This document shows positions 12,249-32,512 of a stretch of DNA of 64,000 bases, one piece after another. The stretch covers positions 32,521 to 96,520 of the forward strand of contig WTFV01000150.1 in NCBI GenBank assembly GCA_011523845.1, written 5' to 3'. The DNA is from Acidobacteriota bacterium. Its GTDB lineage: Bacteria; Acidobacteriota; Vicinamibacteria; Vicinamibacterales; UBA8438. Under the pieces are notes generated by a model that saw only the letters and a program-made list of their open reading frames with translations, was not told the origin of the DNA and ran no database searches. A program made the position numbers and the translations under genes. Position 1 is the first letter of the stretch, and each line of letters begins with the position of its first letter.

Positions 12249-13445
12249 TCACCCCTTCACGCAGACGACCTGCTTGAGCGTGTGGACGATGTCCACGAGG
12301 TCGGAGGAGTTGGCCATCACCGCGTCGATGTCCTTGTAGGCGCCCGGAATCTCGTCGACGACGCCGGCATCCTTGCGGCACTCGACGCCGGCCGTCTGGC
12401 GCTCCAGGTCGGCGGCCGTGTAGGCGGCCTTCGCCTGCGAACGGCTCATCCGCCGCCCCGCGCCGTGGGCGCACGACTGCAGCGACTCCTCCGCCCCGCG
12501 TCCGCGCACGATGTACGAGCGCGCTCCCATGCTGCCCGGGATGATGCCGGGATCACCGCGGCCGGCCCGGATGGCGCCCTTGCGGGTGACGTAGACGGTC
12601 TCGCCGAAGTGCTCCTCCTCGGCCACGTAGTTGTGGTGGCACTCCACCGCCGTCCCGTCCACCCGGAACGGCGGCAGCAGCCCCCGCAGCGTCGCGAGGA
12701 TGCGCGCCATCATCAGGCGCCGGTTCTCCAGGGCGTAGCGCTGCGCCCAGGTCAGCGCGTCGACGTAGTCGGCGAAGTGGTCCGACCCTTCCTCCAGGTA
12801 GGCGAGGTCCTTCGCCGGCAGGCGGGCGAGGTGCCGCTCCATGTCGCGCTTCGCAAGCTGCGTGAAGTAGCGGCCGAGCACGTTGCCGATGCCGCGGCTT
12901 CCGGAATGGAGCATGACCCAGACCCGCTCCGCCTCGTCCAGGCACACCTCGATGAAGTGGTTGCCGCCACCGAGCGTGCCGAGCTGCCGCGGCCACTTCC
13001 CGCGCACGTCCCGGATCATCTTCCCGATGCGCTCGTGGCGTTCCAGGATCCGCTCCAGGCCGGGCCGCAGCGCGTCCAGCACACCGGTGCCGGCGACCGG
13101 TTCCGCGTGCGCGGCGAATCCGACGGGGACCGCGTCCTCGATCGCCTTGCGGACCGGACGCAGCGAGTCGGGCAGTCTCGACGCGTCGAGCGTGAGCCGG
13201 GCGGCGCTCATCCCGCAGCCGATGTCGACGCCCACCGCTGCCGGAATCAGCGCGCGCCGGGTGGGAATGACCGATCCGACCGTCGCCCCGATGCCAACGT
13301 GCACGTCGGGCATGGCGGCCACGTGGCCCACCACGATCGGCAGCCGCGAGACCTCGGCGAGCTGCCGGATCGACCCCTGGTCCACGTCGTCCGTGAAGAT
13401 CTTGACCGGCACGCCGCCCCGGTCGAGCACCTGCCGAACGGGCAT
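12249..13445 (-). CDS. rtcB: RNA-splicing ligase RtcB
   Basis: MPVRQVLDRGGVPVKIFTDDVDQGSIRQL..., MPDVHVGIGATVGSV, GVDIGCGM, LHSGSRGIGN, CHHNY, IIPGSMG and SCAHGAGR are hallmark RtcB motifs. SD GGAGGGAG lies upstream. Confidence 0.95.
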   Translation of the reverse strand: MPVRQVLDRGGVPVKIFTDDVDQGSIRQLAEVSRLPIVVGHVAAMPDVHVGIGATVGSVIPTRRALIPAAVGVDIGCGMSAARLTLDASRLPDSLRPVRKAIEDAVPVGFAAHAEPVAGTGVLDALRPGLERILERHERIGKMIRDVRGKWPRQLGTLGGGNHFIEVCLDEAERVWVMLHSGSRGIGNVLGRYFTQLAKRDMERHLARLPAKDLAYLEEGSDHFADYVDALTWAQRYALENRRLMMARILATLRGLLPPFRVDGTAVECHHNYVAEEEHFGETVYVTRKGAIRAGRGDPGIIPGSMGARSYIVRGRGAEESLQSCAHGAGRRMSRSQAKAAYTAADLERQTAGVECRKDAGVVDEIPGAYKDIDAVMANSSDLVDIVHTLKQVVCVKG

Positions 13446-13645
13446 GGTCGACTGCTCCCTCCAACGAGCGAACCTTCCATTCTGGCATGGAACGGGTTTG
13501 GCCGCGGGCGAAAAACGGCCTCGCCGCCCGGCGTGCATGATGCCGAGATGGCCGATCCGGGGTGGGCGCCGCGCGGCGACGAAACGGCAACGGAAACCGC
13601 CGGGGACGAACCGGACGCGAGGCGGAGACGTGCCGAGCCGGCGGA

Positions 13646-13690
13646 CTACGCCTCCCGCTTTCCCGGTTGCCGCCCGGTGTCGACGATCAC
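13646..13690 (-). pseudogene. Relic of a vapC (PIN) toxin gene: only the first 5 codons are recognisable
   Basis: GTG overlapping the vapB stop (GTGA, as in the intact pair at 32509-32512) encodes M-I-V-D-T (compare MIIDTS of intact VapC). It then diverges and stops after 14 codons. Confidence 0.6.
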
Positions 13691-13944
13691 GTGGGCAGCC
13701 CCCGCTCGTCATAGAGAAGCTCGCCGTGATCCGCGGCCGACGGCCCGGGAGCCAGCCGTTCGGCGCAACGCTCTCCGATGGCAAGCAGCTTCTCGACACG
13801 GACATCGACATCCCGCCGGCGCTGCTCGCGTTCGAGACGTTCACGCAGCGCGAGGGTGATCGCTCCGGTCATGGTCTCGCCCATGAGTCTGGCGAGCTCG
13901 CGGGCCAGCCGGCAGGTCTCTTGGTTCTTGATGTTGAGGCTCAT
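13687..13944 (-). CDS. vapB: VapB-type antitoxin (PSK/Rv0623-like family), orphan
   Basis: MSLNIKNQETCRLARELARLMGETMTGAITLALRERLERE... 65/85 residues are identical by hand alignment to the VapB at 32509-32769, which is followed by an intact PIN toxin. Confidence 0.85.
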   Translation of the reverse strand: MSLNIKNQETCRLARELARLMGETMTGAITLALRERLEREQRRRDVDVRVEKLLAIGERCAERLAPGPSAADHGELLYDERGLPT

Positions 13945-14006: not shown

Positions 14007-14747
14007 TCATGTCTTCAACACCACGACGTCCTCGTCGAGGCCCTGCCGGCAGAGCTCCAACCGCGGATGGCGGCTGACGCCACCGACGGACAGCGTCGAG
14101 CCCAGCGGGTAGAAGGACGCCCCGTCGACGAGCCCGCGCAGCGGGTATTCCCGGCGACCGCTGCTCAGCAGACCGGCTTCCAGCAACCACGGGCCGACCG
14201 CATCACCGGACGCGACGACCTTCTCCGCAGGCGAGAAGACTCCCCGGCGCCTCGTCTCCACGAGAACGCCCCACTCGACGCACGATCGGACGACCCGCTG
14301 CACGGCGCGCGCCACCGTGGTCCGCTCGCCCCAGGACTCGGCCATGCGCCGTGCGATCTGCGACAGGGCGGCGCTTCCCTGGAGGGCCAGCAGCCGGCCG
14401 GTGGTCGCCGCCACGTCGCGGAAGAACGGATAGGTCGCCAGGCACATGCCCCAGTGCAGCGGGAGCCGATCGCGTCCGGTTCGGCCGGCCAGCAGGGTGA
14501 GTGCGTCGTCGCGAAGCGGCACCGCGACGTCAGGCACGGCCATCCAGACGTGCAGCAGCACGGTCATGGTCTTGCCCCGCGCGCTGTGGGGGCCGTCGCC
14601 GGCCACCTGCCCGTCGAGAAGCCGTGCGACCTGCGCCCGGGTCTCCGCCGCGGACAGCCCCTGGGCCGTCCACTCGGCCGTCGCGTCCAGCCAGTCCAGG
14701 CGGATCTTCCGGTCGAACCCGATGATGCGGCGCGTCGTCCCGGACAT
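14007..14747 (-). CDS. BREX-associated protein, BrxA-like by position (terminal gene of type 3 loci); function not verified
   Basis: 246-aa ORF from MSGTTRRIIGFDRKIRLDWLDATAEW... Its start overlaps the pglZ stop (TGATG, 1-nt overlap at 14747). Helical, no motif I can name with certainty. Confidence 0.6.
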   Translation of the reverse strand: MSGTTRRIIGFDRKIRLDWLDATAEWTAQGLSAAETRAQVARLLDGQVAGDGPHSARGKTMTVLLHVWMAVPDVAVPLRDDALTLLAGRTGRDRLPLHWGMCLATYPFFRDVAATTGRLLALQGSAALSQIARRMAESWGERTTVARAVQRVVRSCVEWGVLVETRRRGVFSPAEKVVASGDAVGPWLLEAGLLSSGRREYPLRGLVDGASFYPLGSTLSVGGVSRHPRLELCRQGLDEDVVVLKT

Positions 14748-16759
14748 CACGCCCGCTCGATCTCGACGAAGGGCACGACGACCTCCTCCAGGGTGATGCC
14801 CCCATGGGCCACCGGGCGTTCCGACTCGCGAACGAATGATTGGCGCCCGGGGGCCAGCAGCGCCAGGTAGCCCTCCGGCAGCCCGCTCGCCGGCCATTCG
14901 AGCGCATTCGGATAACGCTCCGCCACCCGCGAGCGCAGGGCGGGATCGGAGAAGATGCGCACGCGCTGGGCGCGCAGATCCGCCACCGAGCCCTCCTTCG
15001 GCGCGCCGCAACCGCGCGTTTCGACGTTCCCGTGGTCCGAGGTGAGGAAGACAGTGAATCCGCTGTCGAACAGCGTGTCGAGCAGCGCGGCCAGCATGCC
15101 GCCGCGGGTCCACTGGCGGATCTGGTTGTGCATCCCGCCGCTTCCGAGGGTCATGCCATGCATGATTCGATCCACGGCGTCGACCACCAGCCCGATCACG
15201 CGGACCCTGGGGTGCGACACGCGCTCCTCGACGGCGCCAAGGTCCGATCGTTCGCGCAGGTTCTTCGCGTAGACCACCGCGACCGGGTCCAGTCCCTCGT
15301 CTCCCCAGAACCGCCTCCACGCCGCCGGCTCGCGGTCGGTGGTGTCGATGCTGCCGGCGAAGTAGAATGGCGGACGCCCCGCGAAACACGCCTGCCGGGA
15401 GACCATGGTCAGCGTGGGAATCCAGGCGAAGAGGCTGTCCTCCCGGAACCGCAATTCGGGTTGCTGCTGCGCCAGCACCTCGCGGACCGCCAGCCACTGG
15501 TCGAGGGCGAGACCGTCCATCACGACCAGCGCGGCCTTGGCGCCCGTGGACTCGTGCAGGCGCCGCGCGAGCACCCGTGGAATCTGGTGAATCATCACCG
15601 GCGGCGAGGGCGGCAGATTGTGCAACGTCTCGAAGCGCTGCCGGACCCACGCCGTGAACGCCTCGTCGATCCGGCCGCGGACGCGGTCGTACCGGACCGG
15701 CGCGCCACCGTCTCCGTTGACGACGTCCGTGTCGGCCTGGAAAACCAGTGCGTTCACCTGCGCCCAGCGCGGTGCGAACGCGAGCCAGTCCTGGTGCGGC
15801 GCTGCGTCGTCCGGCATCGACGTCTCGACGGATGCCAGCAGCCGGTCGAGCCGGCGCGCCCGGTCGGCCCCCGGGTCGATCGCGATGCCCGCCCGCGCCC
15901 AGGACTCGGCGACATCCTGTCCGCGGGGATGCGCAATCGGCCGGAGCGCGCCTTCCAGGAACAGGTTGTCGATGTAGATCCGCACGTCGCTGTCGTCGAA
16001 CGGAATCCGGGCCGGACCGGAGAACGCCAGCCCGTAGTCCGCTACCGTCTCGCGCGCCGCGACCGTGGCGGACGCCGGCGCATCCAGAAAGACCGGCCAG
16101 CGCTCCTGCAGGAACGCGAAGAACGCCTCGCGGTCGGAGACCAACCGCGCCAGGGGCCACTGTGCGAACATCGGGTCCCGCCGCAGCACCAGAACGAGGT
16201 GGCCTTCCAGATCCGGCGGCAGGCGGAGTCTCCTGTAGTGGCGCCGCAGCAGGAAGCGGAGCAGGTCCGACGCCTGCCTGATCCTCTCCGGTGCGACCCC
16301 GAACACGTGCCGCAGAATGAACCCCCGGGTCTGCGACTCGCCGAGCGGTCGGCCGGGCGGTTCCCGAACCTGTGCCGCATGAAGGGCATCGAGATCGCCG
16401 CGGTCCAACGCGCTGACGACCGGACCGCTGAGGCGGGGGAACAGATCGCCGAGGCTGAACGAGAGCCGGCGCGCCGCCTGCAACACGTCGTAGGGAATCG
16501 CGTCCAGGTTCGATGCTTCGCCCCGGAGCACGACGACCAGGTCCGCAAGACCCCCGCGATCACGGCGCGATCGGTAGCGCGACTCGTAGAAGAAGCGGAA
16601 AGCGATGCGGTCCTCGAACGAGGTCACCTGGAAGCCGCGCGCCCGGAGTGTCTCCAGGATGCCCGCCTCCAAGAGCAGGCCGTCGGGATCCGCCGCGATC
16701 GTGAGGCGTGCGACTCCCGGCGTGAACTCCCGCAGGATGTCATCGCGCCAGCCGGCCAC
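14747..16759 (-). CDS. pglZ: BREX alkaline-phosphatase-superfamily protein PglZ
   Basis: 670 aa. N-terminus MAGWRDDILREF..RLTIAADPDGLL, PglZ core VVMDGLALDQW and FLTSDHGNVE. Confidence 0.85.
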   Translation of the reverse strand: MAGWRDDILREFTPGVARLTIAADPDGLLLEAGILETLRARGFQVTSFEDRIAFRFFYESRYRSRRDRGGLADLVVVLRGEASNLDAIPYDVLQAARRLSFSLGDLFPRLSGPVVSALDRGDLDALHAAQVREPPGRPLGESQTRGFILRHVFGVAPERIRQASDLLRFLLRRHYRRLRLPPDLEGHLVLVLRRDPMFAQWPLARLVSDREAFFAFLQERWPVFLDAPASATVAARETVADYGLAFSGPARIPFDDSDVRIYIDNLFLEGALRPIAHPRGQDVAESWARAGIAIDPGADRARRLDRLLASVETSMPDDAAPHQDWLAFAPRWAQVNALVFQADTDVVNGDGGAPVRYDRVRGRIDEAFTAWVRQRFETLHNLPPSPPVMIHQIPRVLARRLHESTGAKAALVVMDGLALDQWLAVREVLAQQQPELRFREDSLFAWIPTLTMVSRQACFAGRPPFYFAGSIDTTDREPAAWRRFWGDEGLDPVAVVYAKNLRERSDLGAVEERVSHPRVRVIGLVVDAVDRIMHGMTLGSGGMHNQIRQWTRGGMLAALLDTLFDSGFTVFLTSDHGNVETRGCGAPKEGSVADLRAQRVRIFSDPALRSRVAERYPNALEWPASGLPEGYLALLAPGRQSFVRESERPVAHGGITLEEVVVPFVEIERA

Positions 16760-16789: not shown

Positions 16790-18562
16790 TCAGGCCGTGT
16801 ACTCGTAGTCGAACACGCACGACGCGCCAATCATCTCGCGAAACCACAACGTGGCGCGGGCGCCCTGCGAATCCGTCAGGTGAACTGGCTCGTTCAGAAC
16901 GAAACGCACCGGCTGGGTCTGGCCGTCGTTGATGGCCACGTTGTTCGCGTAGAGGTACGTGCGATCCAGCGCATCGAGCTTCGGATTGAGCCGCCCCTGA
17001 ATGCCCGGCAGATGCCGCGTTCGGTCGGCGATGACGAGCGATCCCCCGTTCGGGGCCGGCTGCAGGCGAACCTCCAGGGGCTCGCCGGGCTGATAGTCGC
17101 GCGCCACGTGCGCCATGAATCCCGTCGCGGCGCAGAACACGGTCATCGGCAGCTTGGCGTAGAGCACGAACTCGGCCCGCCCAAAGGCATCCGTCCGCGC
17201 CTCGCGATACGTCTTGTTGGGATAGAGCATCAGCACGTCGACACCCGGCAGCGGCTGGTCCGTGTCTCCGCGCCTGACCACGACGCGAACCGCGACGCCG
17301 TCGGACACCGGCAACCGCGCCGCCGGCAGGACGACCTTCAGTTCCCGCTCGCCGATCAACGTGAAGACCGGCCGTTCGCCGGCGAGGGCGAACGTCTCGT
17401 CCTGAATGACGCCGATGCCTTCGCCGCGCCGTTCGATGAAATACTGCCGCCCGCCCGCGCCCGGCACATCGCCCACCGGGCACTGGCCCAGCCGGGACGC
17501 CAGCAGCTCGTTGCGCGTGAACTGGCTGGTGCGCAGGTCGTCGGTCGTCATCGAATTGCAGAGCCCGCCCGGCGAATACAGCTCCAGCCGATCGTCGAAC
17601 ATGAACAGGCGTATCCGCGACCCCGACACCGCGTAGTCGCGATGCACCACCGCGTTGACAACCGCCTCGAAGACCGCGCGTTCGCTGAACTGCGGGACGT
17701 CGATACGCGCCGGGTCCTTGTACGCCGCCACACGCCGATTGCGGACCACGAAGCGCACCGCCTCGCGAATCTGCTCGTCGAGCGGACCGGTGACGTCCCG
17801 CGCGTCGAGTTGCCGGCCCGCGTCCATGCGGTCGCCGCTGTAACACACGGCCTGAATCCACGCGTTCGGCAACCATTCCCGCGCGTCGTCCACGGCCAGC
17901 AGCACCCCGCCGACCGTCGCCCGCAGCGCACCGTGCCGATCGTCCTTCAGGAACTTCAGCTTGGACAACGCGATCTCGGCCGGTTCGTCCATGCGCGAGC
18001 TGACATACTGGCGCCACAGCGCCGGGCGCAAGCTGCCGATCCCGGTGTTCCGCACGACCTGCGTGTCCGTCGCAGTCGCGTCGGACTGCCCCCGCGCCTG
18101 AGACAGCCGGCGGACCTCCGCGGAATCCATCTGCCGCTTCTTGTCACCCCGCCGGCGAAAGTATCCGCCGGGAGATCGGTGCACCGTTGCACTCTCCGGA
18201 ATCTCGACGACCAGCACACCACCCTTCCCGGACCCCGGCGCCTGCACCCGGAAGATGCTGAAGTCCAGCGGCGGCTTGATGCTGTCCGAACAGATCTCCG
18301 TCACCAGATTCGCCAGTGCGTCCAGTTGCGCCGGATCGAGCGACTGCGGTTGCCTGTCGTCCGATACGCCAAGGACGAGACGGCCGCCGCGGGCGTTGGC
18401 GAACGCCGCGAACTCGTCGGCAAGATCGTCGCGCCGGGGCCCTGACACACTGCTGCCGCGGAATCGAGCTTCCTTCAGCTCGAGATCCGTGTCTTCACCG
18501 AGGGCGATCTGTTTCCACAGGCGCTGTTCTTCGATTGGCATGGCCGCCGGACCACCCAGCAT
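16790..18562 (-). CDS. AlbA_2 (Schlafen-like) + HATPase_c_4 domain protein with extra C-terminal beta-rich domains
   Basis: DLELKEARF...EFAAFANARGGRLVLGV (AlbA_2), NAVVHRDYAVSGSRIRLFMFDDRLELYSPGGL (HATPase_c_4-type), then VRVVVRRGDTDQPLPGVDVLMLY...TDAFGRAEFVL (carboxypeptidase-regulatory-like). An alternative start lies at 18541 (MPIEEQ). Confidence 0.75.
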   Translation of the reverse strand: MLGGPAAMPIEEQRLWKQIALGEDTDLELKEARFRGSSVSGPRRDDLADEFAAFANARGGRLVLGVSDDRQPQSLDPAQLDALANLVTEICSDSIKPPLDFSIFRVQAPGSGKGGVLVVEIPESATVHRSPGGYFRRRGDKKRQMDSAEVRRLSQARGQSDATATDTQVVRNTGIGSLRPALWRQYVSSRMDEPAEIALSKLKFLKDDRHGALRATVGGVLLAVDDAREWLPNAWIQAVCYSGDRMDAGRQLDARDVTGPLDEQIREAVRFVVRNRRVAAYKDPARIDVPQFSERAVFEAVVNAVVHRDYAVSGSRIRLFMFDDRLELYSPGGLCNSMTTDDLRTSQFTRNELLASRLGQCPVGDVPGAGGRQYFIERRGEGIGVIQDETFALAGERPVFTLIGERELKVVLPAARLPVSDGVAVRVVVRRGDTDQPLPGVDVLMLYPNKTYREARTDAFGRAEFVLYAKLPMTVFCAATGFMAHVARDYQPGEPLEVRLQPAPNGGSLVIADRTRHLPGIQGRLNPKLDALDRTYLYANNVAINDGQTQPVRFVLNEPVHLTDSQGARATLWFREMIGASCVFDYEYTA

Positions 18563-18686
18563 TACCGCATCGCCTCACTGAGCCAGTCTCCGACGGCACG
18601 CTGCTCCCACTCCACGTACTCGCGGGGAGTTCGCCAGAATACCCTCCAAGCCTCATTGAGCAGCAGTCGACCAGATCCCTTCGTTT
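18562..18686 (-). pseudogene. Displaced 3' end (38 codons + stop) of the HExxH gene, cut off by the IS insertion
   Basis: GC-rich in-frame tail ..TKGSGRLLLNEAWRVFWRTPREYVEWEQRAVGDWLSEAMR* with no start codon. Its TAA overlaps the ATG of the AlbA_2 gene (TAATG). It joins in frame to 22092 when 18687-22091 (3405 nt) is removed. Confidence 0.8.
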
Positions 18687-18709
18687 GGGGATTATATACC
18701 GTCCTAGCC
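18679..18709. repeat. Left target-site duplication (cttcgttt, 18679-18686) + left terminal inverted repeat (18687-18709)
   Basis: IRL is ggggattatataccgtcctagcc. The reverse complement of IRR is ggggattatataccatcctagcc (22/23 match). Confidence 0.9.
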
Positions 18710-18819
18710 TAACGCTATCTCCCGAATATGCATTAGTTTATCCTGGCTGTCGTCGAGAACGGTCAACATCGGCACATGTTCGACGCAGCGCTGTCACCGG
18801 TTGTCGAGCCGTGCTCAAT

Positions 18820-19053
18820 TCAAGATAGAATGACAATTCCCCCCCCATGTATATTTCCAGTACGGTCACCGAGGCTGAATTGAACCTTAACACAGTGACC
18901 GTCCCAACCGTTACCTTCAACCTCAACATCATCAACGGCCAGCCCAATTGGTTTCTTAATGTGTTGCACACCTGCTTTCTCTCTTTTGGGTAGGTGGAAC
19001 CCTAGCACGAGCTTTGCCAGCATGTCAAGATTTCTAGCGTGCGCAGTCAGCAC
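18820..19053 (-). CDS. Hypothetical cargo ORF (77 aa), weak
   Basis: Track ORF in the AT-rich element, divergent from 19087..19668. No recognisable motif, and a competing ORF 18738..18971 overlaps it. Confidence 0.25.
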   Translation of the reverse strand: MLTAHARNLDMLAKLVLGFHLPKREKAGVQHIKKPIGLAVDDVEVEGNGWDGHCVKVQFSLGDRTGNIHGGGIVILS

Positions 19054-19086
19054 GCCGATTGAGAACCTGGACTCACGCTACTTGTA

Positions 19087-19668
19087 ATGGACAAATTCTC
19101 AAAACTAGAGTACACTCTTGAGATGAATTTCTCTGCTTTGCCAATTCGTTGGGGTGAACTTCTCTCGACTATCCTTCCTGGTGCTTGGGCATTGACGGCC
19201 ATTCTTCCGTATTTGCCGGAATTTACGGAGTGGCTATCTCAAGGCTCTCTAGCACAGGCGATGGTTATAATTGCAGCGGCAACACTCTTGGGCGGTTCTA
19301 TTAGTGGCTTCACTCGTTTTACTTGGGAATATGGTCTTTTTGCGTTTAGTGATTTCAAAGTGAAACCACTTTCTCTAGTGGTTACTGACTCAGAGAAGAT
19401 GAAATTGTATGAGTTTTTGTTGGACAATTCTTATAAATGGGTTGGGTGTCACGCCAATACTGGGTGGGCGACACTTTTGGTTTTGTTGAGTCGACTGCAA
19501 CGCTGCCCTTCCGAATTGGGAATCATAGAACTTGCATTATCTGTTGCGGTTGTGATATTATTTACAGCTTCGTATGTCCAATGGTGGATATACGTAGACC
19601 ATATGAATACTGCATTTGGCAGCAACGGAGGAGAGCATGTTCAGGAACGTACCACAGACGGGGTCTAG
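19087..19668 (+). CDS. Hypothetical integral membrane protein (about 4 TM), IS cargo
   Basis: 193-aa ORF with hydrophobic segments LLSTILPGAWALTAILPYL, AMVIIAAATLLGGSISGF, GWATLLVLLSRL and IIELALSVAVVILFTASYVQWWIY. Confidence 0.6.
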   Translation: MDKFSKLEYTLEMNFSALPIRWGELLSTILPGAWALTAILPYLPEFTEWLSQGSLAQAMVIIAAATLLGGSISGFTRFTWEYGLFAFSDFKVKPLSLVVTDSEKMKLYEFLLDNSYKWVGCHANTGWATLLVLLSRLQRCPSELGIIELALSVAVVILFTASYVQWWIYVDHMNTAFGSNGGEHVQERTTDGV

Positions 19669-19831
19669 GATTAAGGCCATCACATCTACGAGAGAATTCA
19701 AGCTAGGTGATGAGGGTACCTTGCGGGCACCGCTGGCAGACTACTACGTAGATCGCGCCGAGGATTTATTTGAGGCTGAATTCTTCGGTCGAATCATAGT
19801 AGTTCGTCGGGGTGACGTTGAGTTGACCTAA
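19637..19831 (+). CDS. Hypothetical small protein (64 aa), IS cargo
   Basis: ATG after GGAGGAG (aacggaggagagcATG): MFRNVPQTGSRIKAITSTREFKLGDEGTLRAPL... It overlaps the end of the membrane-protein gene. Confidence 0.5.
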   Translation: MFRNVPQTGSRIKAITSTREFKLGDEGTLRAPLADYYVDRAEDLFEAEFFGRIIVVRRGDVELT

Positions 19832-19877
19832 GATTCTGAACAGGGCTAGTGCGTGGCGATCCACTGGCTCTGTTGTC

Positions 19878-20813
19878 TTACTTCGCCGGTCGTGCCGTTG
19901 AAGAAAGGCCGTTCTCTCGAATAAGGTCCTTGTACCGCAATCTCTTGTCCTCAGCCAGAAACACCATCACCTGCATCTGCTCAATCGTATCCAGCGGCCG
20001 CTGGTTGTGCCGACCCTCGAATTCCTTGACATAGCGGTCCAAGTGCTTCGGGCTCATTTTGTGGTAGACCCCAATATAGCCACGCTTCATCATGCTCCAG
20101 AATGACTCCATGCCGTTCGTATGAGCTTGCTCCCTGACGTATTCTCCCGTCGAATGAGATACAGCCTCGCGATTCGGAACACCACTGTAAGTTGTCGCTG
20201 TATCTGTGTAGACCTTGGTCCCATCTTCCACATTCTCTTGAATGAAACCTTTGAGAGTCCGACCGTCGGTATTCTCAACTACCTTCGCTCTGACCCGACC
20301 CGTCCCTCGTTCCTTCATCCCAACGACAGCCGTCTTGTTGACTGGTCCTCGACCCTCCTCCTGTTTACGCTTCCACGCGTGCTTGTTCTTCGCCTTGCCA
20401 CCGAAATACCCTTCATCTACTTCAACAGCGTTCTCAAAATCACCTGCCTCTTCGTCCCGCCAGGTCTCCCGAATCCGATGCGCCAGATGCCACGCTGTCT
20501 TTTGGGTCACGCCCAGGTCCCGATGCAACTTCATCGAGGACGTCCCCTTGAGCCCAGTTGCCAGAAGGTAGAACGCCAGCGCCCAGGTCTGGAGACCCAG
20601 GTTGGAACCCTGCATGACCGTCCCAGTCTTGACGCTGAAGTGCTTCCGGCAATCTCGACACCGATAGGGCATCGGCTTTCGATTCTCGACCTTCCGAATA
20701 TTCAGCGAGCCGCACTGCGGGCACGCTATACCGTTAGGCCAGCGTGTTTCGATGAACCACTGCTCCGCGGCTTCCTCGGTGGCGAACATGCGCACGACTT
20801 CCATCAGGGTCAT
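19878..20813 (-). CDS. IS1595-family transposase (N-terminal Zn-ribbon + ISXO2-like DDE domain)
   Basis: MTLMEVVRMFATEEAAEQWFIETRWPNGIACPQCGS...YRCRDCRKHFSVKTGTVMQGSNLGLQTWALAFYL...VEVDEGYFGG...VYTDTATTYSG...HSTGEYV...HTNGMESFWSMMKRG. The longer track ORF (to 21074) runs through the tRNA and is rejected. Confidence 0.9.
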   Translation of the reverse strand: MTLMEVVRMFATEEAAEQWFIETRWPNGIACPQCGSLNIRKVENRKPMPYRCRDCRKHFSVKTGTVMQGSNLGLQTWALAFYLLATGLKGTSSMKLHRDLGVTQKTAWHLAHRIRETWRDEEAGDFENAVEVDEGYFGGKAKNKHAWKRKQEEGRGPVNKTAVVGMKERGTGRVRAKVVENTDGRTLKGFIQENVEDGTKVYTDTATTYSGVPNREAVSHSTGEYVREQAHTNGMESFWSMMKRGYIGVYHKMSPKHLDRYVKEFEGRHNQRPLDTIEQMQVMVFLAEDKRLRYKDLIRENGLSSTARPAK

Positions 20814-20977
20814 GCCCTTGCGCCAGTGCTTGCCGGGTGCGTTTCGTGCCACTGCGAGCCTCCTAGCCAGTCTAGGGGAAAGATATCGCAGTTGACAGTC
20901 CTCGACAAGCTGTTCTGGTACAGGTTTTGCTTGACTTGCAGCGGGCGGACCGGACAGACTTCGTGGCGGTGGAGGGG

Positions 20978-21061
20978 TGTGGGCGACGGGATTCGAACCC
21001 GCAAGACCTGCTGGCCAGCGGCTTTCTAGGCCGCCGCGTATTCCAGTTCCGCCACGCCCAC
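20978..21061 (-). tRNA. Class II (long variable arm) tRNA, anticodon loop CUAGAAA = apparent anticodon AGA; Leu/Ser-type body, A73, no encoded CCA
   Basis: Hand fold: GTGGGCG-TG-GCG-GAACTGGAATA-CGC-G-GCGGC-CTAGAAA-GCCGC-TGGCCAGCAGGTCTT-GCGGG-TTCGAAT-CCCGT-CGCCCAC-A. 7-bp acceptor stem, T8, A14, G18G19, canonical T-loop. Confidence 0.65.
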
Positions 21062-21460
21062 GCTGCTCCGCCATCTACTAGCTCTCATCCCTCTACCTCC
21101 TTGCCCAACATGGGCTTTGACCGTTCAATTCATTCTAGCAGAATCCTCGTGATGGTGATTGGTTTCAAGGCGAAGAAACGGCAAATGACAGGTTTCTGTC
21201 AGCGACGCCCTGTTAGCTTGACATTCATGCTTGATCTGTGGAACGCTACTCCTTGCCACGCGATTCGTGTACGACCCGACGCCGGGTCGCCCACCAAATA
21301 CAAGACTGCCCGTACGGGCAGGAATAGGTGGGGATCCCGCATGTACGTGCGCGAATCGTGTGGCAACTGGCCCGGTGACCAATTCCGGGCTGGCCCGTTG
21401 GCGTCCGTCGTCCAGGGTTTCGGTTGTCCGGAAACTCGGCGCTGGAAAGGACGTGCCACA

Positions 21461-21829
21461 ATGTTCCTTAACAGTCTACTTTATAGTGGGATTGCAGTTA
21501 TTATCGTGGTGGGTGCATATTTGTTACTTGATGGCAGAGACTTCTCTATGTCCAACTACTACTACCAAATGGGCAGAGACGATATATTGGCTGGACAGGA
21601 GTATCCTCCAGGTAGTATTTCGTGTGGAGAGTTGCCTGATGTTATTCAGCGCGTTGTAGATGAGCAGATGAGTAGTGGGGTCAATTTGGACCGTATTCGT
21701 GGCAGAATTGACGTTCAGTTTGATATGGTGAAGAATAGATGCGGAATGGGTCCAACTCGAATAGAGGGTAGTGGTTTGCCGCTAACACCCGAGGATAGAC
21801 GAAGGCGACTGCTGGAGGGTCTCCGTTAG
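21461..21829 (+). CDS. Hypothetical protein with N-terminal TM helix (122 aa), IS cargo
   Basis: MFLNSLLYSGIAVIIVVGAYLLLDGRDF...; the internal ATG of the 20927..21829 track ORF where AT-rich coding begins. Confidence 0.5.
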   Translation: MFLNSLLYSGIAVIIVVGAYLLLDGRDFSMSNYYYQMGRDDILAGQEYPPGSISCGELPDVIQRVVDEQMSSGVNLDRIRGRIDVQFDMVKNRCGMGPTRIEGSGLPLTPEDRRRRLLEGLR

Positions 21830-21880
21830 TGCTTGACTTGCGTGGTAGAATGTTGGCGGTCGAAATCAGGAGGTAGTGTG

Positions 21881-22054
21881 ATGCCGTCAAAGCTCAAGAT
21901 ACCACCCCGCATCCCGGACACTCCGGAGAACATCGCCCTAGCTTGTATGCAAGGTCCACCGAAAAAGAAATGGCGCCATCTGGAAGAGTCGGGGTTGGTG
22001 GCTGATGACCCTTCGCTCGAAGAGTACGAGGAGAAGGAGCCTTCTCGAGAGTAG
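21881..22054 (+). CDS. Hypothetical small protein (57 aa), IS cargo
   Basis: ATG after AGGAGG (aggaggtagtgtgATG): MPSKLKIPPRIPDTPENIALACMQGPPKKKWRHLEESG... Confidence 0.45.
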   Translation: MPSKLKIPPRIPDTPENIALACMQGPPKKKWRHLEESGLVADDPSLEEYEEKEPSRE

Positions 22055-22060
22055 TGGGTG

Positions 22061-22091
22061 GGCTAGGATGGTATATAATCCCCCTTCGTTT
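22061..22091. repeat. Right terminal inverted repeat (22061-22083) + right target-site duplication (cttcgttt, 22084-22091)
   Basis: ggctaggatggtatataatcccc followed by cttcgttt. The IRR supplies the last 6 codons and the TAG stop (GDYIPS*) of the truncated HExxH gene. Confidence 0.9.
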
Positions 22092-23100
22092 CCCGTCCGA
22101 CGATGTCGCAGTCCAGCGCGCGCGTACCCTCGAAAGCCAAGCCCTCAACTCGGCTGACGAGCTCTATTGGGAAGCAGCGTCGGTACTCTGGGGACGCCTC
22201 GCTGCCGCTCAACCCAAGGTACTCCTCCCACCGGCGCTCAATCGCGGCCCGCTCTTCATCAAAGCCGAGGCGTTCCAAGGCCAGAAGCATAGCCGTCATG
22301 CGCGCCGCGTCGGGTGGATGAACCGTGGGTGTCACGAGCGGAACCTCGAAGGGGTCTGCACCCACACTGGCCGCGAGGTGAAGGTGCGACCACGCAAACG
22401 CCGGACCGGCCATGTAGACGGCGTAGAGGTCACAGAAGAGTTCAATCGCCCACGAAAGCCAGCAGCCGATCCACGTCATCAAGTATTGTTTGAAGGTCTC
22501 CGGGCCTAGCCCAGCGTCCTCTTTGCGTAGCTCGCCCGCGAGGTACCCGTGGGCGTCGCTCACGGCTTCGACATGCCGCTTCTGAAAGCCCTCGAGACGC
22601 GCATCGTCTTCGAACTCCAGCAGTGAGTGCGCGAGCTCGTGGTAGAGATCCGGCAAGTGCAGCAGGAACCGCCCCTCTGCCAGCGGCACACAGACGAGCC
22701 GGAGGTCGGGGTACGTGTGGAAGTACCGCTGCGAGGCACAGGAGACCACAGGGGTTGGCAGTGGATAATGGATCTCTCCGGCCAGACGATCAGCGATCTG
22801 GTTCATCCAGCGATCTTCCGCGTTCCATCGGCACAGAGCGGTGACTGCAACCGACTCAAGGTGGTCTAGCTCACCCCGCACCCGACGAAAGAGGCGCAGG
22901 CGCTCCCGCTGATTGTCGGACTCCCTGAGTTCCGGACGATCGCGCAAGAGGCGAAGGCGCTTGCCGACTATCTTCAGGCGGTCGCGACATGCGACCTCGA
23001 GAGCAGCGACCTCCCGCCCGAGTCCGGCTGGAATCAAGTCGCACAACTGCCGGGTGCGCTCCAGCAACTGGGACACCGCCCCCTCGAAGTACTCGTTCAC
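22063..23100 (-). CDS. HExxH-motif protein (putative zincin-like), last gene of the Argonaute cassette; C-terminally truncated by the IS (345 aa now, 377 aa reconstructed)
   Basis: GTG start overlaps the upstream stop (GTGA 23097-23100). VNEYFEGAVSQLLERTRQL...; LHLPDLYHELAHSLL (H154-E-x-x-H158). Ends ..DIVGRETK + GDYIPS* encoded by the IS end. Confidence 0.75.
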   Translation of the reverse strand: MNEYFEGAVSQLLERTRQLCDLIPAGLGREVAALEVACRDRLKIVGKRLRLLRDRPELRESDNQRERLRLFRRVRGELDHLESVAVTALCRWNAEDRWMNQIADRLAGEIHYPLPTPVVSCASQRYFHTYPDLRLVCVPLAEGRFLLHLPDLYHELAHSLLEFEDDARLEGFQKRHVEAVSDAHGYLAGELRKEDAGLGPETFKQYLMTWIGCWLSWAIELFCDLYAVYMAGPAFAWSHLHLAASVGADPFEVPLVTPTVHPPDAARMTAMLLALERLGFDEERAAIERRWEEYLGLSGSEASPEYRRCFPIELVSRVEGLAFEGTRALDCDIVGRETKGDYIPS

Positions 23101-23462
23101 GTCCCAACGCCCCTCATCTTGGCGAGGGCTTCGGTTCGTCGCTCTTCCAGTCGTCGTGCGAGTTCTCGCAGCTTGTCCACGACTTCGGGGTCGACTGTGG
23201 TCGACAGCAGGGCGCGGCCTACGCATTCCCATTCCTTGCGGGCGCTCGGGTCCGCGCCACCGATGAGCATCCCCAGCCAAGCCGTGCGGAGGTCTGGTGG
23301 CGGAGCTACCGCAACACCGACCAGCAGTTCGCCGAGCTCCCGACGGGATGCATCTGTCCGTACGTCCGCCGTGGAACTCAGCCCGAGGATAACCTCGTCG
23401 ATGAGCTCGCCGTAGTCTCGCACTCGCTGGTACACGTTCGAGTGGACACCGATGTCGCTCAT
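23097..23462 (-). CDS. Hypothetical helical protein (121 aa) coupled to the Argonaute gene
   Basis: ATG overlaps the Argonaute stop (ATGA 23459-23462), preceded by GAGGAGGTGG. MSDIGVHSNVYQRVRDYGELIDEVILGL... Confidence 0.7.
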   Translation of the reverse strand: MSDIGVHSNVYQRVRDYGELIDEVILGLSSTADVRTDASRRELGELLVGVAVAPPPDLRTAWLGMLIGGADPSARKEWECVGRALLSTTVDPEVVDKLRELARRLEERRTEALAKMRGVGT

Positions 23463-25849
23463 GCCACCTCCTCGGCGGTCTCGCCGCCCACCACCGCCGC
23501 ATCTGCGAAATCGACCGCGTCTACGTCGTACTCTCCCGCCGCGGCCGCAAGGATGCGGTCGTTCAGCTTGATGGTGATCGGGTACCGGGTACAGCCCTCG
23601 GGCTGCGTCCAGGTCAGCGCAGTCAGGGAGTAGAGATCCTCCAGTGCCTCGGAAAAGGAAAGCGTGCCGTCGACCATGATGACGTGCAGCGGGTGGGCGG
23701 TGCCTTGACGGAGAAAAGGGTAGCCGGTCGAGCAGACGTACGCTTCCTGATCGCCGACGTAATATGTGGCGCCGACACTCGGGTTGTCCCCGAGCAACCC
23801 TCCACGGCCATTCGGCCGGACATCGTACAGGCGAAGCGGTACGGGTGACGACTTTGAAATTTCGATGACCGCGTAGCCGGTGTCGGGTGCGAGGCAGCCC
23901 TCTGAGCGAAGTTGGCGGATTGCACGACGGACACCGTCCAGCTCCGAGGGCCACGCCCGCCCGTCGCGGTGGACTACGACCTTGGAAAGCGGGGCGCCAC
24001 GAGCCCCCGCTTCCCTGCGCAATACCTCCACAAGATACGTCGACATCTGGGCCGCGAGCAGTCGCTCCTTCTGGCGAGACGTGTGGACGTCCGACCGGAT
24101 GTTGCTACCGTGCGCGCCGACGACCAGGAGACCGGCACTGTTGTTCTTTACGTCCACCCCGACCGTGACGTCCGCGTGAAGTGGAGTCGCAAGGACAAAC
24201 GGCCATCGCTGATTCGTCAGGAGCAGCTTCGCGATCACGACGTTACGCAAGTAGCCGGCCAGCTTTCTTCGAAGTGCCGGAACAGGCCCATAAACGACGT
24301 GACCGTCCTTGGCTCGCTCCTCGCGATAGGTGTGCCGTGGAACGTCGCTGTGGATGACGGTAGCTCGGACGTCGTGCTGTTGCCGAAGCTCCCGGACGAC
24401 CATCGCGGCAAGTTGGTCCTCGTCGCGGTTCTGTCGTCCGACGGTACGGTGCACCATGACTAGCGCATATCCGGGTCGTGAGCACTTGGCCGCCGTCGCA
24501 GCTCGCACTGCAAGAGCCTGGCGTACGAACGTCCGCTGGCCACGATCGGCATAGGGCACAATGATGGGCTTGTAGCCGCCGGGTTGAGGGAAGAACTCGT
24601 CGACAGCCTTGGAGAGATCCTCAATGAGCCGCGCGCCGATCGTATCGTAGATGCTCTCCGGAAGAATGAGATACTGCCGGTCGAGCGGCGCGGACTCATG
24701 AAAGCCCACTGTTTGGTCCCTGAGGAGCTCCAGCCTGCGGCTTCCGAAGTCGTTCGGCCTCGCTTGAACGGCTCCCCGCGTACCGCGAGCAGAAAGGACC
24801 GTATTCTTGCCGAATGCGAGATCGGGCAACTTGAAACCTTGGAGTGCGACCCGCAGTGGCTCGGTGGAGACGCGCACGCGTGCGTTTCCGAATTGAAGCG
24901 CGCGAAGGTACCGATCCACGAAGGCTCGGGTTTGGTTCCGGCGTTGATGGGGAGGCAGGATGGTTCTGCCGTGCTGGCCCGCAACCTCCTTGCTATTCGT
25001 GCGGAACACGGGATAGCACAGTGGCGCGGGCGCCGCAAGCTCAGCGCCCCGATTGTTCAGATAGAGAACGGCCGCAGAATCGGCAGGTAGGTTACCCAGA
25101 TCCGACGGAAACGGTCGGCGCGCCTGATCGAGAATGTACTCGAGCAACGACCAAGTTCTCCCCTTCGTGACGAAGCGGTATTCCTGTACGTTCCTGTCGG
25201 CCAGGGCGTGAAGATGAACCTCGTACCAGTCTTGGCCGAAGCGGTACACGCAGTTGCGACCCTTCCAGCGGGCGGCGAATTCGTTGCGTGCCAGCCGCGC
25301 CGGGAGCGGACGGGCGCTGACGTAGCAGTGGTGCACGTCGACACAGAGACCAATGCCCGCCTCGGGAGTTAAGACAGGCCGCACGCTGAAGCCCACGTAA
25401 CGATGGATGCCGCGGTCGTTCTGCGCCGGATTGCGCTCGAAGAACGGGCGTCCAGATTGCAGTTGCCAAAGCCGTGCATCGCGTCCGAGCGGGGCCTGGA
25501 CCAGGAAGCGAAGAAACCGCAGGGAGATCGCGTCATCCGGCCCTCGCTTCGAGTAGTCAAGGTCGACTCCTTCGTCACGAGGCCGAAGCTGAACGACGAC
25601 GCGCACAAGCTCGACTTCCGAGGGAAGCGTGGCGACATCTTCGGAAACGACGACGAAAGGGATATCGCCGCGTTCGATTACAAGTACAGCCTTCCTGAGC
25701 GAATAGCTGAGCCGCCGTTCGAGCGCTTGGCGATTTTGGAAGTACTCGGCTTGGTCTCGGCGCAGGCCGGCGACCTCGACGAGCCTGTACCGCGTCGACA
25801 ACTCGCCCAGGTTCGTGATGGAATAGATGTTCGTTTCAAGCTGCCTCAT
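23459..25849 (-). CDS. Long prokaryotic Argonaute (pAgo, 796 aa) with PAZ-like, MID and PIWI regions and an apparent DEDD catalytic tetrad
   Basis: From MRQLETNIYSITNLG. PIWI signatures: TVGVD566V, QKE595RLL, VVVHRD629GR, LTWTQPEG..YPITIKLND764RILA. MID/PIWI linker YLRNVVIAKLLLTNQRWPF. PAZ-like NCVYRFGQDWYEVHL...WSLLEYIL...CYPVF. Confidence 0.85.
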   Translation of the reverse strand: MRQLETNIYSITNLGELSTRYRLVEVAGLRRDQAEYFQNRQALERRLSYSLRKAVLVIERGDIPFVVVSEDVATLPSEVELVRVVVQLRPRDEGVDLDYSKRGPDDAISLRFLRFLVQAPLGRDARLWQLQSGRPFFERNPAQNDRGIHRYVGFSVRPVLTPEAGIGLCVDVHHCYVSARPLPARLARNEFAARWKGRNCVYRFGQDWYEVHLHALADRNVQEYRFVTKGRTWSLLEYILDQARRPFPSDLGNLPADSAAVLYLNNRGAELAAPAPLCYPVFRTNSKEVAGQHGRTILPPHQRRNQTRAFVDRYLRALQFGNARVRVSTEPLRVALQGFKLPDLAFGKNTVLSARGTRGAVQARPNDFGSRRLELLRDQTVGFHESAPLDRQYLILPESIYDTIGARLIEDLSKAVDEFFPQPGGYKPIIVPYADRGQRTFVRQALAVRAATAAKCSRPGYALVMVHRTVGRQNRDEDQLAAMVVRELRQQHDVRATVIHSDVPRHTYREERAKDGHVVYGPVPALRRKLAGYLRNVVIAKLLLTNQRWPFVLATPLHADVTVGVDVKNNSAGLLVVGAHGSNIRSDVHTSRQKERLLAAQMSTYLVEVLRREAGARGAPLSKVVVHRDGRAWPSELDGVRRAIRQLRSEGCLAPDTGYAVIEISKSSPVPLRLYDVRPNGRGGLLGDNPSVGATYYVGDQEAYVCSTGYPFLRQGTAHPLHVIMVDGTLSFSEALEDLYSLTALTWTQPEGCTRYPITIKLNDRILAAAAGEYDVDAVDFADAAVVGGETAEEVA

Positions 25850-26777
25850 CGGCCTTCTCCCAGCAGATCTTCTGGTACGCGCAACGCTGACAGACGTTGG
25901 GCCATGCCGTGACCGCGAAGTCTTCGGCGCGGAGGTCGCCGTTCTTGAGACCGTCCGTCGCAGCGAGCATCTCTGTCGCGCTCGCCGCCACGTAGTCCTC
26001 AAGCTCGTCGAAGTCCGCTGAATCCAAGGCATACTCGTGCTCGATTCCTGAAAGCAGTTGCGCCTCGACGAGCCGGTAGTCTGTCGGCGTAAACTCCGTC
26101 AGGACCGGCGGAAAGTCGCGGTGTGGGGTGCAGCGCGACAGCGACAGCGCGTACAGGGCCAATTGGAGCCGGTAGTCGCGAGTACCGAACGAATGGACTT
26201 TCCAGTCTACGATGAGCGGGGGCGCTTTCTCGTTGAATGCAATCACGTCGGGGACCGCGACAACCGACACGCCGGCGAATTTGAACTGCAGAGAACGCTG
26301 GGCGACCACGTACGAAGCGCGCTTCAGGGCGGCTCGCAGCCCGTCCATCTTGAACACGTTGTCAATCGCCGTTTGGATGTCCTGCCACGCCTGCGCAATC
26401 TCCTCCTGTCGTATGCCGTGGCCGTACTCGATCGCGCGGAAGGCTGCAACTGCGTCGTTCTTGGAAAGCTCCAGCGCAGGCTCGTGGATGCGATTGTTGA
26501 TCGCGAAGTCCAGCTCCCGCTCGAAGCAGACTTTGGCGGCAGTGCGGAGGTCCGCCTTCGTGATTCGCTGGCCCCGCCTCAAAGCCAGCACGAGTCTCTC
26601 GCTGAGGATTCTGTCGACGAGCCTGCCGCGCCACCCGCTCACGCTCTGGAGCTTCGAAAGGAGGTAGGCCGTCCGACGCTGCCGATCCTTGGCCACGGCG
26701 CTTGCAAGGCAATTCTTGAAGAACCAGCTCCGCTGGCACTGCCGAAAAGCACGCGCCGCCGAGAAGGACCACCTCAT
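25836..26777 (-). CDS. Cas4-like PD-(D/E)XK nuclease with four-Cys (Fe-S) signature
   Basis: 313 aa. C14 ... D177 (AVPDVIAF), D191-W-K193 (LIVDWKV), Q205xxxY209 (QLALYAL), C296-x2-C299-x5-C305. Its 3' end overlaps the pAgo start by 14 nt, and its ATG overlaps the XRE stop (ATGA). Confidence 0.8.
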   Translation of the reverse strand: MRWSFSAARAFRQCQRSWFFKNCLASAVAKDRQRRTAYLLSKLQSVSGWRGRLVDRILSERLVLALRRGQRITKADLRTAAKVCFERELDFAINNRIHEPALELSKNDAVAAFRAIEYGHGIRQEEIAQAWQDIQTAIDNVFKMDGLRAALKRASYVVAQRSLQFKFAGVSVVAVPDVIAFNEKAPPLIVDWKVHSFGTRDYRLQLALYALSLSRCTPHRDFPPVLTEFTPTDYRLVEAQLLSGIEHEYALDSADFDELEDYVAASATEMLAATDGLKNGDLRAEDFAVTAWPNVCQRCAYQKICWEKADEAA

Positions 26778-32091: not shown

Positions 32092-32125
32092 GCCGTCGTT
32101 CCGAGACGATTCGCATCCTGCCGGA

Positions 32126-32512
32126 TCACGCCGCCTCGACGTCGGTGCGAGCGAAGTCGTCGCCCTTGAACAGCAGCGGTTCGCCGGTGGCCTTCGCCAA
32201 CGCATAGGCGAGACAGTCGCCGAAGTTCAACGCCGCCCGATGATTGCCCTTGCCGAATCGCCGCCAGGCGCGGCGGGCGACCTCGACGTGTTCCGGCGTG
32301 ACCGGCGCCAACTCGATCTCCGCCTTGTCCAGAAACATGTCGAGTTGACGTCCCGCCGCGGCTCCCGCCCTGCCCTCGACAACCATGGTTGCTTCGAGCA
32401 GGGCGACCGCCGACATGCGCCTGGGCCACGCCGCCGAGATTGCCTGTTCGTAGTGCGTCGCGTCCGATTCGCCGAACAGGATGGCCATGATCGCCGACGT
32501 GTCGATGATCAC
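32126..32512 (-). CDS. vapC: VapC PIN-domain toxin
   Basis: MIIDTSAIMAILFGE... (PIN Asp4) ...FGDCLAYALA. GTG start overlaps the vapB stop (GTGA). Confidence 0.9.
   Translation of the reverse strand: MIIDTSAIMAILFGESDATHYEQAISAAWPRRMSAVALLEATMVVEGRAGAAAGRQLDMFLDKAEIELAPVTPEHVEVARRAWRRFGKGNHRAALNFGDCLAYALAKATGEPLLFKGDDFARTDVEAA

Follow-up and report, generated by a model that had tools for sequence, protein, structure and literature searches.

What is the 3,397-bp element that lies between two 23-bp terminal inverted repeats (TIRs) inside a defence locus of an Acidobacteriota bacterium, and why would it hold a tRNA-shaped gene beside its transposase? The locus is part of a 64,000-nucleotide stretch of contig WTFV01000150.1 (assembly GCA_011523845.1), hereafter the window; related loci are cited by number (L001 and so on) and the coordinates of all features are collected in Table 1. 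Insertion sequences (ISs) by definition carry little besides a transposase. As set out below, the element is a complete, passenger-carrying IS of the IS1595 family, for which family, boundaries, target duplication and empty site can each be demonstrated, and the tRNA-like gene occupies a fixed place in the layout of a whole lineage of such elements. The cloverleaf of this gene is under selection and its anticodon is not conserved. We consider the explanation as a whole, that is, passenger-carrying IS1595 transposition, a lineage layout and a retained tRNA shape together with the roles proposed below, to be highly probable.

The two TIRs match each other at 22 of 23 positions, and a search of the window with the TIR pattern at up to three mismatches returned these two sites alone, with none expected from 100 shuffles. 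The element ends read GGGGATTAT, beginning with GG, and the first 13 nt of the left repeat, GGGRATTAYATAC, are found again at the ends of related elements. G+C content is 52.3% over the element versus 68.2% and 63.5% in its flanks and 69.3% in the window minus the element. The lowest 300-nt value is 42%, only the open reading frames (ORFs) of 193 and 122 amino acids (aa) drop to 42–47%, and the transposase and tRNA-like region lies at 52–61%. An original prediction for this DNA had described an IS1595-family insertion with these TIRs, a perfect 8-bp duplication, a G+C content of about 35–50% in sampled 60-nt lines, a tRNA and at least four ORFs besides the transposase, and a recent arrival. 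Coordinates and the 22/23 match of the TIRs were reproduced, as was the duplication (cttcgttt on both sides, single in empty-site alleles), and the passengers are one tRNA and ORFs of 193, 71, 122 and 57 aa. The low G+C content holds locally but not for the element overall.

Removal in silico of the element and one copy of the duplication fuses two minus-strand ORFs into a gene for a 377-aa protein with a GTG start at 23100. The restored protein aligns with a database protein of the same length (P0121) at 90% identity, gap-free through the junction, and has a 73% homologue in a Bryobacteraceae metagenome-assembled genome (MAG). Uninterrupted alleles, which the prediction had proposed to look for in related genomes, are present in three contigs, L038–L040 (two sponge-metagenome assemblies and one Logan assembly), the closest uninterrupted loci being those from sponge metagenomes. 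They match the predicted junction over 260 nt centred on it at 95% identity, gap-free and with one target copy, and their flanks match those of the window at 91% identity over 6.7 kb; on the gene strand they read AAATGAAG where the window reads AAACGAAG. An independent short-read contig from another sample (L041) equals window positions 21611–23536 at 1,925 of 1,926 nt, the junction at the right TIR included, and the long layout of the window's element recurs, with separate 8-bp duplications, at six further insertion sites. That the contig is an assembly chimera, or that a minimal IS and adjacent DNA have been mistaken for one unit, can thus be dismissed as extremely improbable despite the abrupt composition step at both ends and a shortest relative (L016) of 1.5 kb whose end lies about 60 bp from the transposase start, since the perfect duplication brackets the whole unit, the excised sequence fits the empty sites gap-free, the junction recurs in L041 and the six other long copies have duplications of their own. 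We therefore take the insertion to be a true transposition. The perfect duplication, the near-perfect ends and the empty alleles in relatives with 91%-identical flanks support the predicted recent arrival, and a comparatively recent date seems appropriate.

An N-terminal zinc ribbon is a trait of all IS1595 groups but IS1016. The transposase contains both this domain (Pfam Zn_ribbon_IS1595, PF12760, 1.5e-9) and the catalytic domain (DDE_Tnp_IS1595, PF12762, 2.4e-38, profile positions 5–153 of 153), and matches the NCBIfam model transpos_IS1595 (NF033547) at 1e-53. The four zinc-ribbon cysteines (CPxCGS...RCxxC) and the motifs VEVDE, VYTD and HTNGMESFW..KRG are invariant across nine relatives, and perfect 8-bp direct repeats flank 15 of the 17 relatives for which both ends could be placed. 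The IS1595 family is defined by an 8-bp duplication, a zinc finger and a DDE domain (PMC8101967). The predicted family identity is thereby borne out by zinc ribbon and DDE domains, catalytic motifs, TIRs and duplication alike. The nearest transposase among 5.8 billion proteins is 92% identical, and the nearest in an annotated plasmid collection is 47% identical and labelled just 'IS1595 family transposase'; with a closest database transposase only 92% identical, the element would count as a new IS under the usual naming rules. Its ends GGGGATTAT agree with what we take to be the consensus of the ISNwi1 group, ggnnatTAT, and its 3.4 kb presumably falls within the length range of passenger-carrying derivatives of that group. 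The element thus resembles the IS1595 family in its single DDE transposase with an N-terminal zinc ribbon, its 8-bp duplication and its GG ends, and differs in having no close named relative and in that its lineage adds three conserved modules, namely the tRNA-like gene, a structured leader and a small ORF. A literature search found no description of these modules, or of the architecture they form, for the family.

Closer relatives were reached by exact-protein look-ups. All those with at least 70% transposase identity (L026, L027, L028, L029/L030, L031, L032 and L036; 70–92%) have the layout of the window, with the tRNA-like gene 110–190 bp upstream of the transposase, co-oriented with it and within the TIRs where both ends are on the contig. 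Position and strand of the gene are fixed throughout this set and in L043–L045 (66–70% transposase identity), and the gene occurs in other arrangements in L011, L005, L020 and L047/L048. A scan of species-representative genomes yielded 25 more distant relatives (46–69% transposase identity) in MAGs of Caldilineaceae, Dehalococcoidia, Latescibacterota, Arenicellales, Paracoccaceae, Spirochaetia, Acidimicrobiaceae and Thaumarchaeota, the GGGRATTAYATAC ends recurring in many of them and element sizes spanning 1.5–5 kb; three of the 25 have a tRNA, none at the canonical position. A scan of JGI metagenomes for further copies gave three loci, none with a tRNA, and scans of IMG/VR for further copies gave no match. 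The layout is conserved in the lineage. Read from the transposase-upstream end, it runs from the TIR through an outward small ORF (for a protein with the motif IPDTPENIA), a variable ORF with a signal-peptide-like start, a structured leader resembling sRNA-Xcc1 that would serve both ORFs, the divergent tRNA-like gene, a promoter-like spacer, the transposase and a second variable cargo slot to the other TIR. Nearly all observed members of the lineage come from metagenomes and MAGs, a number of which are plainly of sponge origin, and from high-G+C hosts. IS1595 relatives with GGGGATTATATAC ends and 8-bp duplications are present both in archaeal (Nitrosopumilus/Thaumarchaeota) MAGs (L014–L018) and in bacterial MAGs of many phyla (L001–L013), a distribution that, with several MAGs clearly sponge-derived, points to spread across domains within one habitat. 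Two close relatives were likewise seen in or next to defence-type genes: at L028 2876–7328 a related IS splits an AlbA_2/HATPase_c_4 gene, and at L026 1–3089 a related element, which adjoins SIR2_2 and DUF87 genes, has in turn received an IS66-family insertion.

The tRNA-like gene of the window is called Ser-AGA by ARAGORN and scores 52.6 bits against the Rfam tRNA model (threshold 29), with 55.8 bits for the copy in L029 and 38.4 bits for that in L011. Across 11 distinct sequences 96.4% of the stem cells are paired and 17 of the 20 pairs have changed on both sides; none of 500 shuffles reached the observed values, and slid partners pair in at most 51%. U8, A14, G18G19 and the T-loop are retained, CCA is encoded in most copies, and nearly all copies have the long variable arm of class II tRNAs. 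The anticodon, by comparison, is AGA in the window and L029, GGA in L027, CGC in L028 and L005, UGC in L011, GUG in L031 and L043–L045, AUG in L032 and L036, UAG in L047/L048 and GCG in L020, and L026 has an anticodon loop of 6 nt. The agreement of anticodon with body and the conservation among orthologues that mark a canonical tRNA were not found. The gene can also be mosaic: L029 and L032, whose transposases are 89% identical, have the anticodon stem and T-arm in common and differ in acceptor stem, D-arm, variable arm, discriminator base and anticodon. Repeats were observed at the gene in two relatives. In L029 a 20-nt direct repeat, AGAATCCGCTTGACTACCAC, stands on both sides of it (about 4714–4733 and 4901–4920), and in L045 three tandem copies of a 25-nt promoter-like unit lie between transposase and tRNA-like gene (about 1577–1650); these repeats suggest cassette-like exchange or duplication at this site.

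Putative promoters flank the tRNA-like gene. In an alignment of the window with L026, L027 and L028 the two hexamers of the spacer between this gene and the transposase are kept while the sequence separating them varies, and we infer that the spacer acts as a promoter. The extended −10-like sequence upstream of the tRNA-like gene has its counterparts in TGCTAGACT in L026 and in TTGACA-N17/18-TACGTT in L027 and L028. An exact 12-nt direct repeat, TGCTTGACTTGC, was noted at window positions 20928–20939 and 21830–21841 (+), one copy being located between transposase and tRNA-like gene and the other just upstream of the extended −10-like TGGTAGAAT of the small ORF; it may be a shared operator or −35 element.

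On the other side of the tRNA-like gene lies the structured leader, which is 88–89% identical to its counterparts in L027 and L028 versus 80–81% for the transposase gene. The conserved stretch reaches precisely to the ATG, even though the ORFs behind it are not the same from element to element. The leader folds with an energy of −136.6 kcal/mol (z = −3.7 versus shuffled controls). Because MAFFT placed two strands out of register, the 5' one of the long leader helix and the 3' one of the inner stem, the helix tables were read from per-sequence folds. In these tables, as well as within a second group of leaders (L029, L032, L036 and L031) and between the groups, compensatory changes are found: 6 of the 14 pairs of the outer helix show them between lineages, inner stem and apical hairpin covary, and one-sided changes give G-U pairs on the plus strand only. 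A profile of the leader also matches L037, L011 and L043–L045. Wherever leader and tRNA-like gene adjoin they are divergent, including in L011, where the transposase is elsewhere; L037 has the leader without a tRNA.

No Rfam family matches the leader at threshold. The best match of three leader lineages is sRNA-Xcc1 (RF02221), with 19.3 bits for the window, 24.3 for L011 and 29.4 for L036 against a threshold of 53, and at these sub-threshold scores the leader would be a distant relative of that RNA. The matches are full-length and in sense, and the two RNAs have in common the outer helix, the inner stem, the AAUACAA / GAAUA internal loop and the ACCAAU 3' tail, as well as residence on mobile elements upstream of a small gene. 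sRNA-Xcc1 is carried by integrons, transposons and plasmids and precedes the symE toxin gene in Xanthomonas cassettes (PMC12189769; bioRxiv 10.1101/2025.06.18.660453). The leader differs in a 28-nt insertion, in a further long helix, which competes with the outer one or knots into it, in preceding signal-peptide ORFs in place of symE and in hosts that are not Xanthomonadaceae. A long helix in competition with the outer one would, from the modelled folds, suit a regulatory switch, and the leader may act as a cis-regulator of the cargo operon. The upstream TTGACA is conserved in the window, L027 and L028 (TTGACT in L026), and its assignment as a −35 box is weak because no good −10 was found. On the transposase strand a hairpin within the leader region is followed by TCTTGTATTT; we infer that it works as a terminator, and together with this tract it could block outside read-through into the tRNA-like gene and the transposase. 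A T-box riboswitch that senses the element's own tRNA was considered and rejected: there was no Rfam T-box match at E ≤1, or at E ≤10 for the leader alone, and the window, L027 and L028 have leaders of about 90% identity to one another despite the anticodons AGA, GGA and CGC.

The third conserved module, the small ORF, has 26 homologues among 5.8 billion proteins, with 13 invariant columns and lengths of 45–57 aa among relatives. It is kept in all relatives that have the tRNA-bearing layout and in the distant L003, L006, L007, L019 and L037, and in every element where it was found, distant ones of opposite arrangement included, it reads outward to the nearest TIR. Some homologues carry an AT-hook-like RGRPV at the N-terminus. 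None of the homologues belongs to a known family, and a profile search with the small ORF yielded no meaningful relative in PDB and Pfam; the protein might be an accessory or regulatory factor. In L019, a minimal 1.9-kb relative, a fragment with a DNA-methylase-like DPPF motif (5930–6140) separates the transposase from a lengthened small ORF. The remaining ORFs are variable, and neither they nor the small ORF matched a family in Pfam, NCBIfam, PADLOC or PHROGs. For the 193-aa ORF 31 representative homologues were retrieved, none above 39% identity and most of them covering most of the query; the ORF is absent from the other elements fetched. For the 71-aa ORF, the coding status of which is doubtful, related elements have no counterpart. 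The 122-aa ORF gave no tblastn match in plasmids, and the ORF at its position varies between elements, each beginning with a signal-peptide-like segment.

What, then, might the tRNA-like gene do? It is no chance passenger but belongs to the conserved modules of this IS lineage. What is retained would be its tRNA shape rather than any single decoding specificity, and its likeliest role would be that of a module for RNase P/Z processing, or for insulation, at the head of the transposase transcript, the supply of codons for the A+T-richer cargo being the main alternative. tRNA–mRNA operons are known, for example thrU-tyrU-glyT-thrT-tufB of Escherichia coli. As in that operon, the tRNA-like gene immediately precedes a co-oriented protein gene and no terminator is evident between the two, so that co-transcription followed by RNase P/Z processing is possible; the window differs in the promoter-like site that stands between the two genes. 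Several points speak against the explanation proposed here. Some tRNA-like copies have defects that would be out of place in a working tRNA, namely the 6-nt anticodon loop in L026, C33 in L028, G1-A72 in L031, a degenerate D-arm in L036 and an 8-nt T-loop in L047. The covariation could come partly from swaps with different genuine tRNAs, as the comparison of L029 with L032 illustrates. A processing or insulating role is a prediction, and the transposase has a separate promoter-like site in front of it, downstream of the tRNA-like gene. Finally, the searches turned up no second, identical copy of the element, and the transposase is matched at 92% at best; because of this, current activity of the element, which we hold to be probable, is deduced from intact motifs and ends only.

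An ordinary decoding tRNA, carried as cargo and supplying codons that the A+T-richer element uses often and its G+C-rich host seldom, is a rather unlikely explanation in our judgement. Phage-borne tRNAs are known to supply codons that are rare in the host. The canonical fold, the presence of all universal tertiary nucleotides and the CCA encoded in most copies are what such a tRNA should have, and the tRNA-bearing elements, at 48–58% G+C, do reside in richer host flanks (mostly 59–74%). UCU, the codon read by AGA, accounts for 26% of the Ser codons of the element (44% in the 193-aa ORF) versus 6% in six host genes, an enrichment that lends weak support to codon supply. The anticodons AGA, AUG, UAG and UGC read A/U-ending codons, the loop CUAGAAA is identical in the window and L029 despite different stems, and within the transposase genes the codons matching the element's own anticodon encode ordinary conserved Ser, Ala, His or Leu residues. 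The anticodons CGC, GCG, GGA and GUG, on the other hand, read G/C-ending codons, and His and Ala anticodons are placed on class II bodies without G-1:C73 and mostly without G3:U70. In the window itself the D-arm and A73 look Leu-like, by what we take to be the E. coli tRNA identity rules, whereas the anticodon is that of Ser. A34 is unusual in bacteria outside tRNA-Arg, and several copies have loop or stem defects. Like the tRNA genes of phages and integrative elements, the gene arrives in a G+C-rich host on a mobile element of lower G+C content in which its codon is enriched. Here, however, the carrier is an IS with a single such gene at a fixed place beside the transposase, the bodies are nearly all of class II, and the anticodon varies among close relatives and often misfits the body. 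In the literature searched, no paper was found that connects IS1595 with tRNA or tRNA-like genes.

If the gene were a functionless tRNA passenger, captured once from a host and now drifting, visibly damaged copies such as those of L026, L036 and L047 would be expected, as would an element like L037 (67% transposase identity), which has a partial leader and no tRNA. We nevertheless find drift improbable. Position and strand are constant in every relative of at least 70% transposase identity; the stems are 96% paired, with 62 cells changed on both sides; between the window and L026, with 92%-identical transposases, 4 of the 7 acceptor pairs differ and all are compensated; and the pair of tRNA-like gene and leader persists in L011 at 55% transposase identity.

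A class II tRNA, or tRNA mimic, with a shifted anticodon that acts on host translation or on tRNA-targeting systems is, to our mind, a slim prospect. It could serve in missense decoding by way of an anticodon-blind synthetase (Ser, Leu or Ala), or as a decoy for anticodon nucleases or tRNA-modifying toxins. Several independent lineages combine class II bodies with non-cognate anticodons, L031 and L043–L045 have G3:U70, and the anticodon loop evolves faster than the body: 3 of the 8 differences between L027 and L028 fall within 7 of 89 nt. Elements of the lineage also lie in or beside defence loci in the window, in L026 (SIR2/DUF87) and in L028 (AlbA_2 gene). Against this, C33 and the 6-nt loop indicate a loss of decoding rather than a new decoding function, and missense decoding would harm the transposase because it uses the affected codons for invariant Ser, Ala and His residues. 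That the element's own tRNA recodes the transposase was accordingly excluded, the matching codons being found at standard conserved residues with no departure from the standard code.

The element sits in the 377-aa gene of a prokaryotic Argonaute (pAgo) cassette within a BREX (bacteriophage exclusion) locus, as the original prediction had placed it, and every gene of the locus is on the minus strand (Table 1). The gene is truncated near its 3' end and not mid-gene, the last 37 of 377 codons being replaced by five IS codons (DYIPS), and the insertion parts it from the AlbA_2/HATPase_c_4 gene, whose ATG overlaps the original stop (TAATG). The interrupted gene had been taken for the last one of the pAgo cassette. 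It is not, because in the intact locus L038 the AlbA_2/HATPase_c_4 gene follows directly, with stop and start overlapping, as a further member of that compact cassette. Polar effects of the insertion on the downstream AlbA_2, pglZ and brxA-like genes, with a possible inactivation of BREX, had also been predicted. The transposase reads in the direction of the defence operon, and between its stop and the left end of the element no terminator-like site was found on the transposase strand; further upstream that strand has the terminator-like hairpin at 21321–21306. Two further features of the island were noted. The edge of the BREX/pAgo island is occupied, immediately downstream of PglZ, by an RtcB RNA ligase (tRNA repair/splicing) that has an extra stretch of about 160 aa at its N-terminus. 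The pAgo cassette (PD-(D/E)XK, pAgo, 121-aa, 377-aa and AlbA_2 genes) stands between the BREX methylase and PglZ in the window (14747–36564) and downstream of PglZ, behind a helix-turn-helix gene, in L038; given this difference in place it seems to be mobile relative to BREX.

Table 1. Positions in the window of the element's parts and of the genes of the surrounding defence locus.
Feature	Positions	Strand	Basis or remark
Left target-site duplication copy, cttcgttt, 8 bp	18679-18686	.	read from sequence
Left TIR (IRL), 23 bp, GGGGATTATATACCGTCCTAGCC, transposase-downstream side	18687-18709	+	pattern search and relatives' ends
193-aa ORF, predicted multi-pass membrane protein, 43% G+C	19087-19668	+	convergent with transposase
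71-aa ORF, overlapping the end of the 193-aa ORF	19616-19831	+	coding status doubtful
IS1595-family transposase, 324 aa	19878-20852	-	Pfam, NCBIfam; GTG start 7 nt after AGGAGG
Conserved spacer, promoter-like TTGTCG-N17-TATCTT and block AGTCAAGCAAAACCTGTACCAGAA	20853-20975	-	alignment of window, L026, L027 and L028
tRNA-like gene, class II (long variable arm), loop CUAGAAA (AGA), discriminator A, no encoded CCA	20976-21061	-	ARAGORN, Rfam
Extended -10-like TGCTAGAAT upstream of tRNA-like gene	21132-21140	-	putative promoter
TTGACA, -35-like box upstream of leader	21218-21223	+	conserved in window, L027 and L028; TTGACT in L026
Structured leader RNA, up to ATG of 122-aa ORF	21250-21460	+	folds, covariation, Rfam; sRNA-Xcc1-like core 21280-21385
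Hairpin CTGCCCGTACGGGCAG, then TCTTGTATTT	21306-21321	-	terminator-like on transposase strand; apex of leader fold on other strand
122-aa ORF, hydrophobic N-terminus, 44% G+C	21461-21829	+	
57-aa small ORF, core IPDTPENIAxACMQGPPKKxW	21881-22054	+	ends 6 nt before TIR
Right TIR (IRR), 23 bp, GGGGATTATATACCATCCTAGCC on minus strand, transposase-upstream side	22061-22083	-	pattern search
Right target-site duplication copy, cttcgttt, 8 bp	22084-22091	.	read from sequence
RtcB	12249-13844	-	
PglZ	14747-16759	-	
AlbA_2/HATPase_c_4	16790-18562	-	
377-aa gene, displaced 3' end (last 37 codons and stop)	18562-18686	-	excision and empty sites
377-aa pAgo-associated gene, 5' part (340 codons)	22084-23100	-	excision and homologue alignment
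121-aa gene	about 23100-23460	-	
Class II pAgo	23459-26032	-	
PD-(D/E)XK nuclease	25836-26777	-	
DNA methylase	27447-30227	-	
AlbA_2 protein	30214-32205	-	
DUF6079 (BrxC-like)	32809-36564	-	

Taken alone, the insertion is routine, an IS that truncates a gene of a defence island, and it provides a natural knock-in with which to ask whether the 377-aa pAgo partner, the downstream AlbA_2 protein and PglZ require co-transcription. The newer part is the architecture of tRNA-like gene, leader and small ORF. To our knowledge, the RNA partners of insertion sequences known so far belong to other families, namely the bridge RNAs of IS110 and the omega RNAs of IS200/IS605. The leader takes the mobile-element motif of sRNA-Xcc1 well beyond the Xanthomonadaceae, and a tRNA-shaped gene with a changeable anticodon, fixed beside a DDE transposase in many hosts and accompanied by a leader and a tiny protein, suggests a so far unrecognised RNA-based control, or host manipulation, in IS1595. 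It is possible, and we put this forward tentatively, that an IS1595 lineage spreading among high-G+C symbionts, several of them in sponge metagenomes, has co-opted a class II tRNA scaffold as a resident functional module with a swapped or fast-evolving anticodon and acceptor; that this module works as a processing or insulating device, or as a tRNA or mimic acting on host translation or on tRNA-directed defence; and that it is paired with a new, larger relative of sRNA-Xcc1 controlling an operon of secreted or membrane cargo. If true, this would be the first insertion-sequence family with a tRNA-derived RNA in its core.

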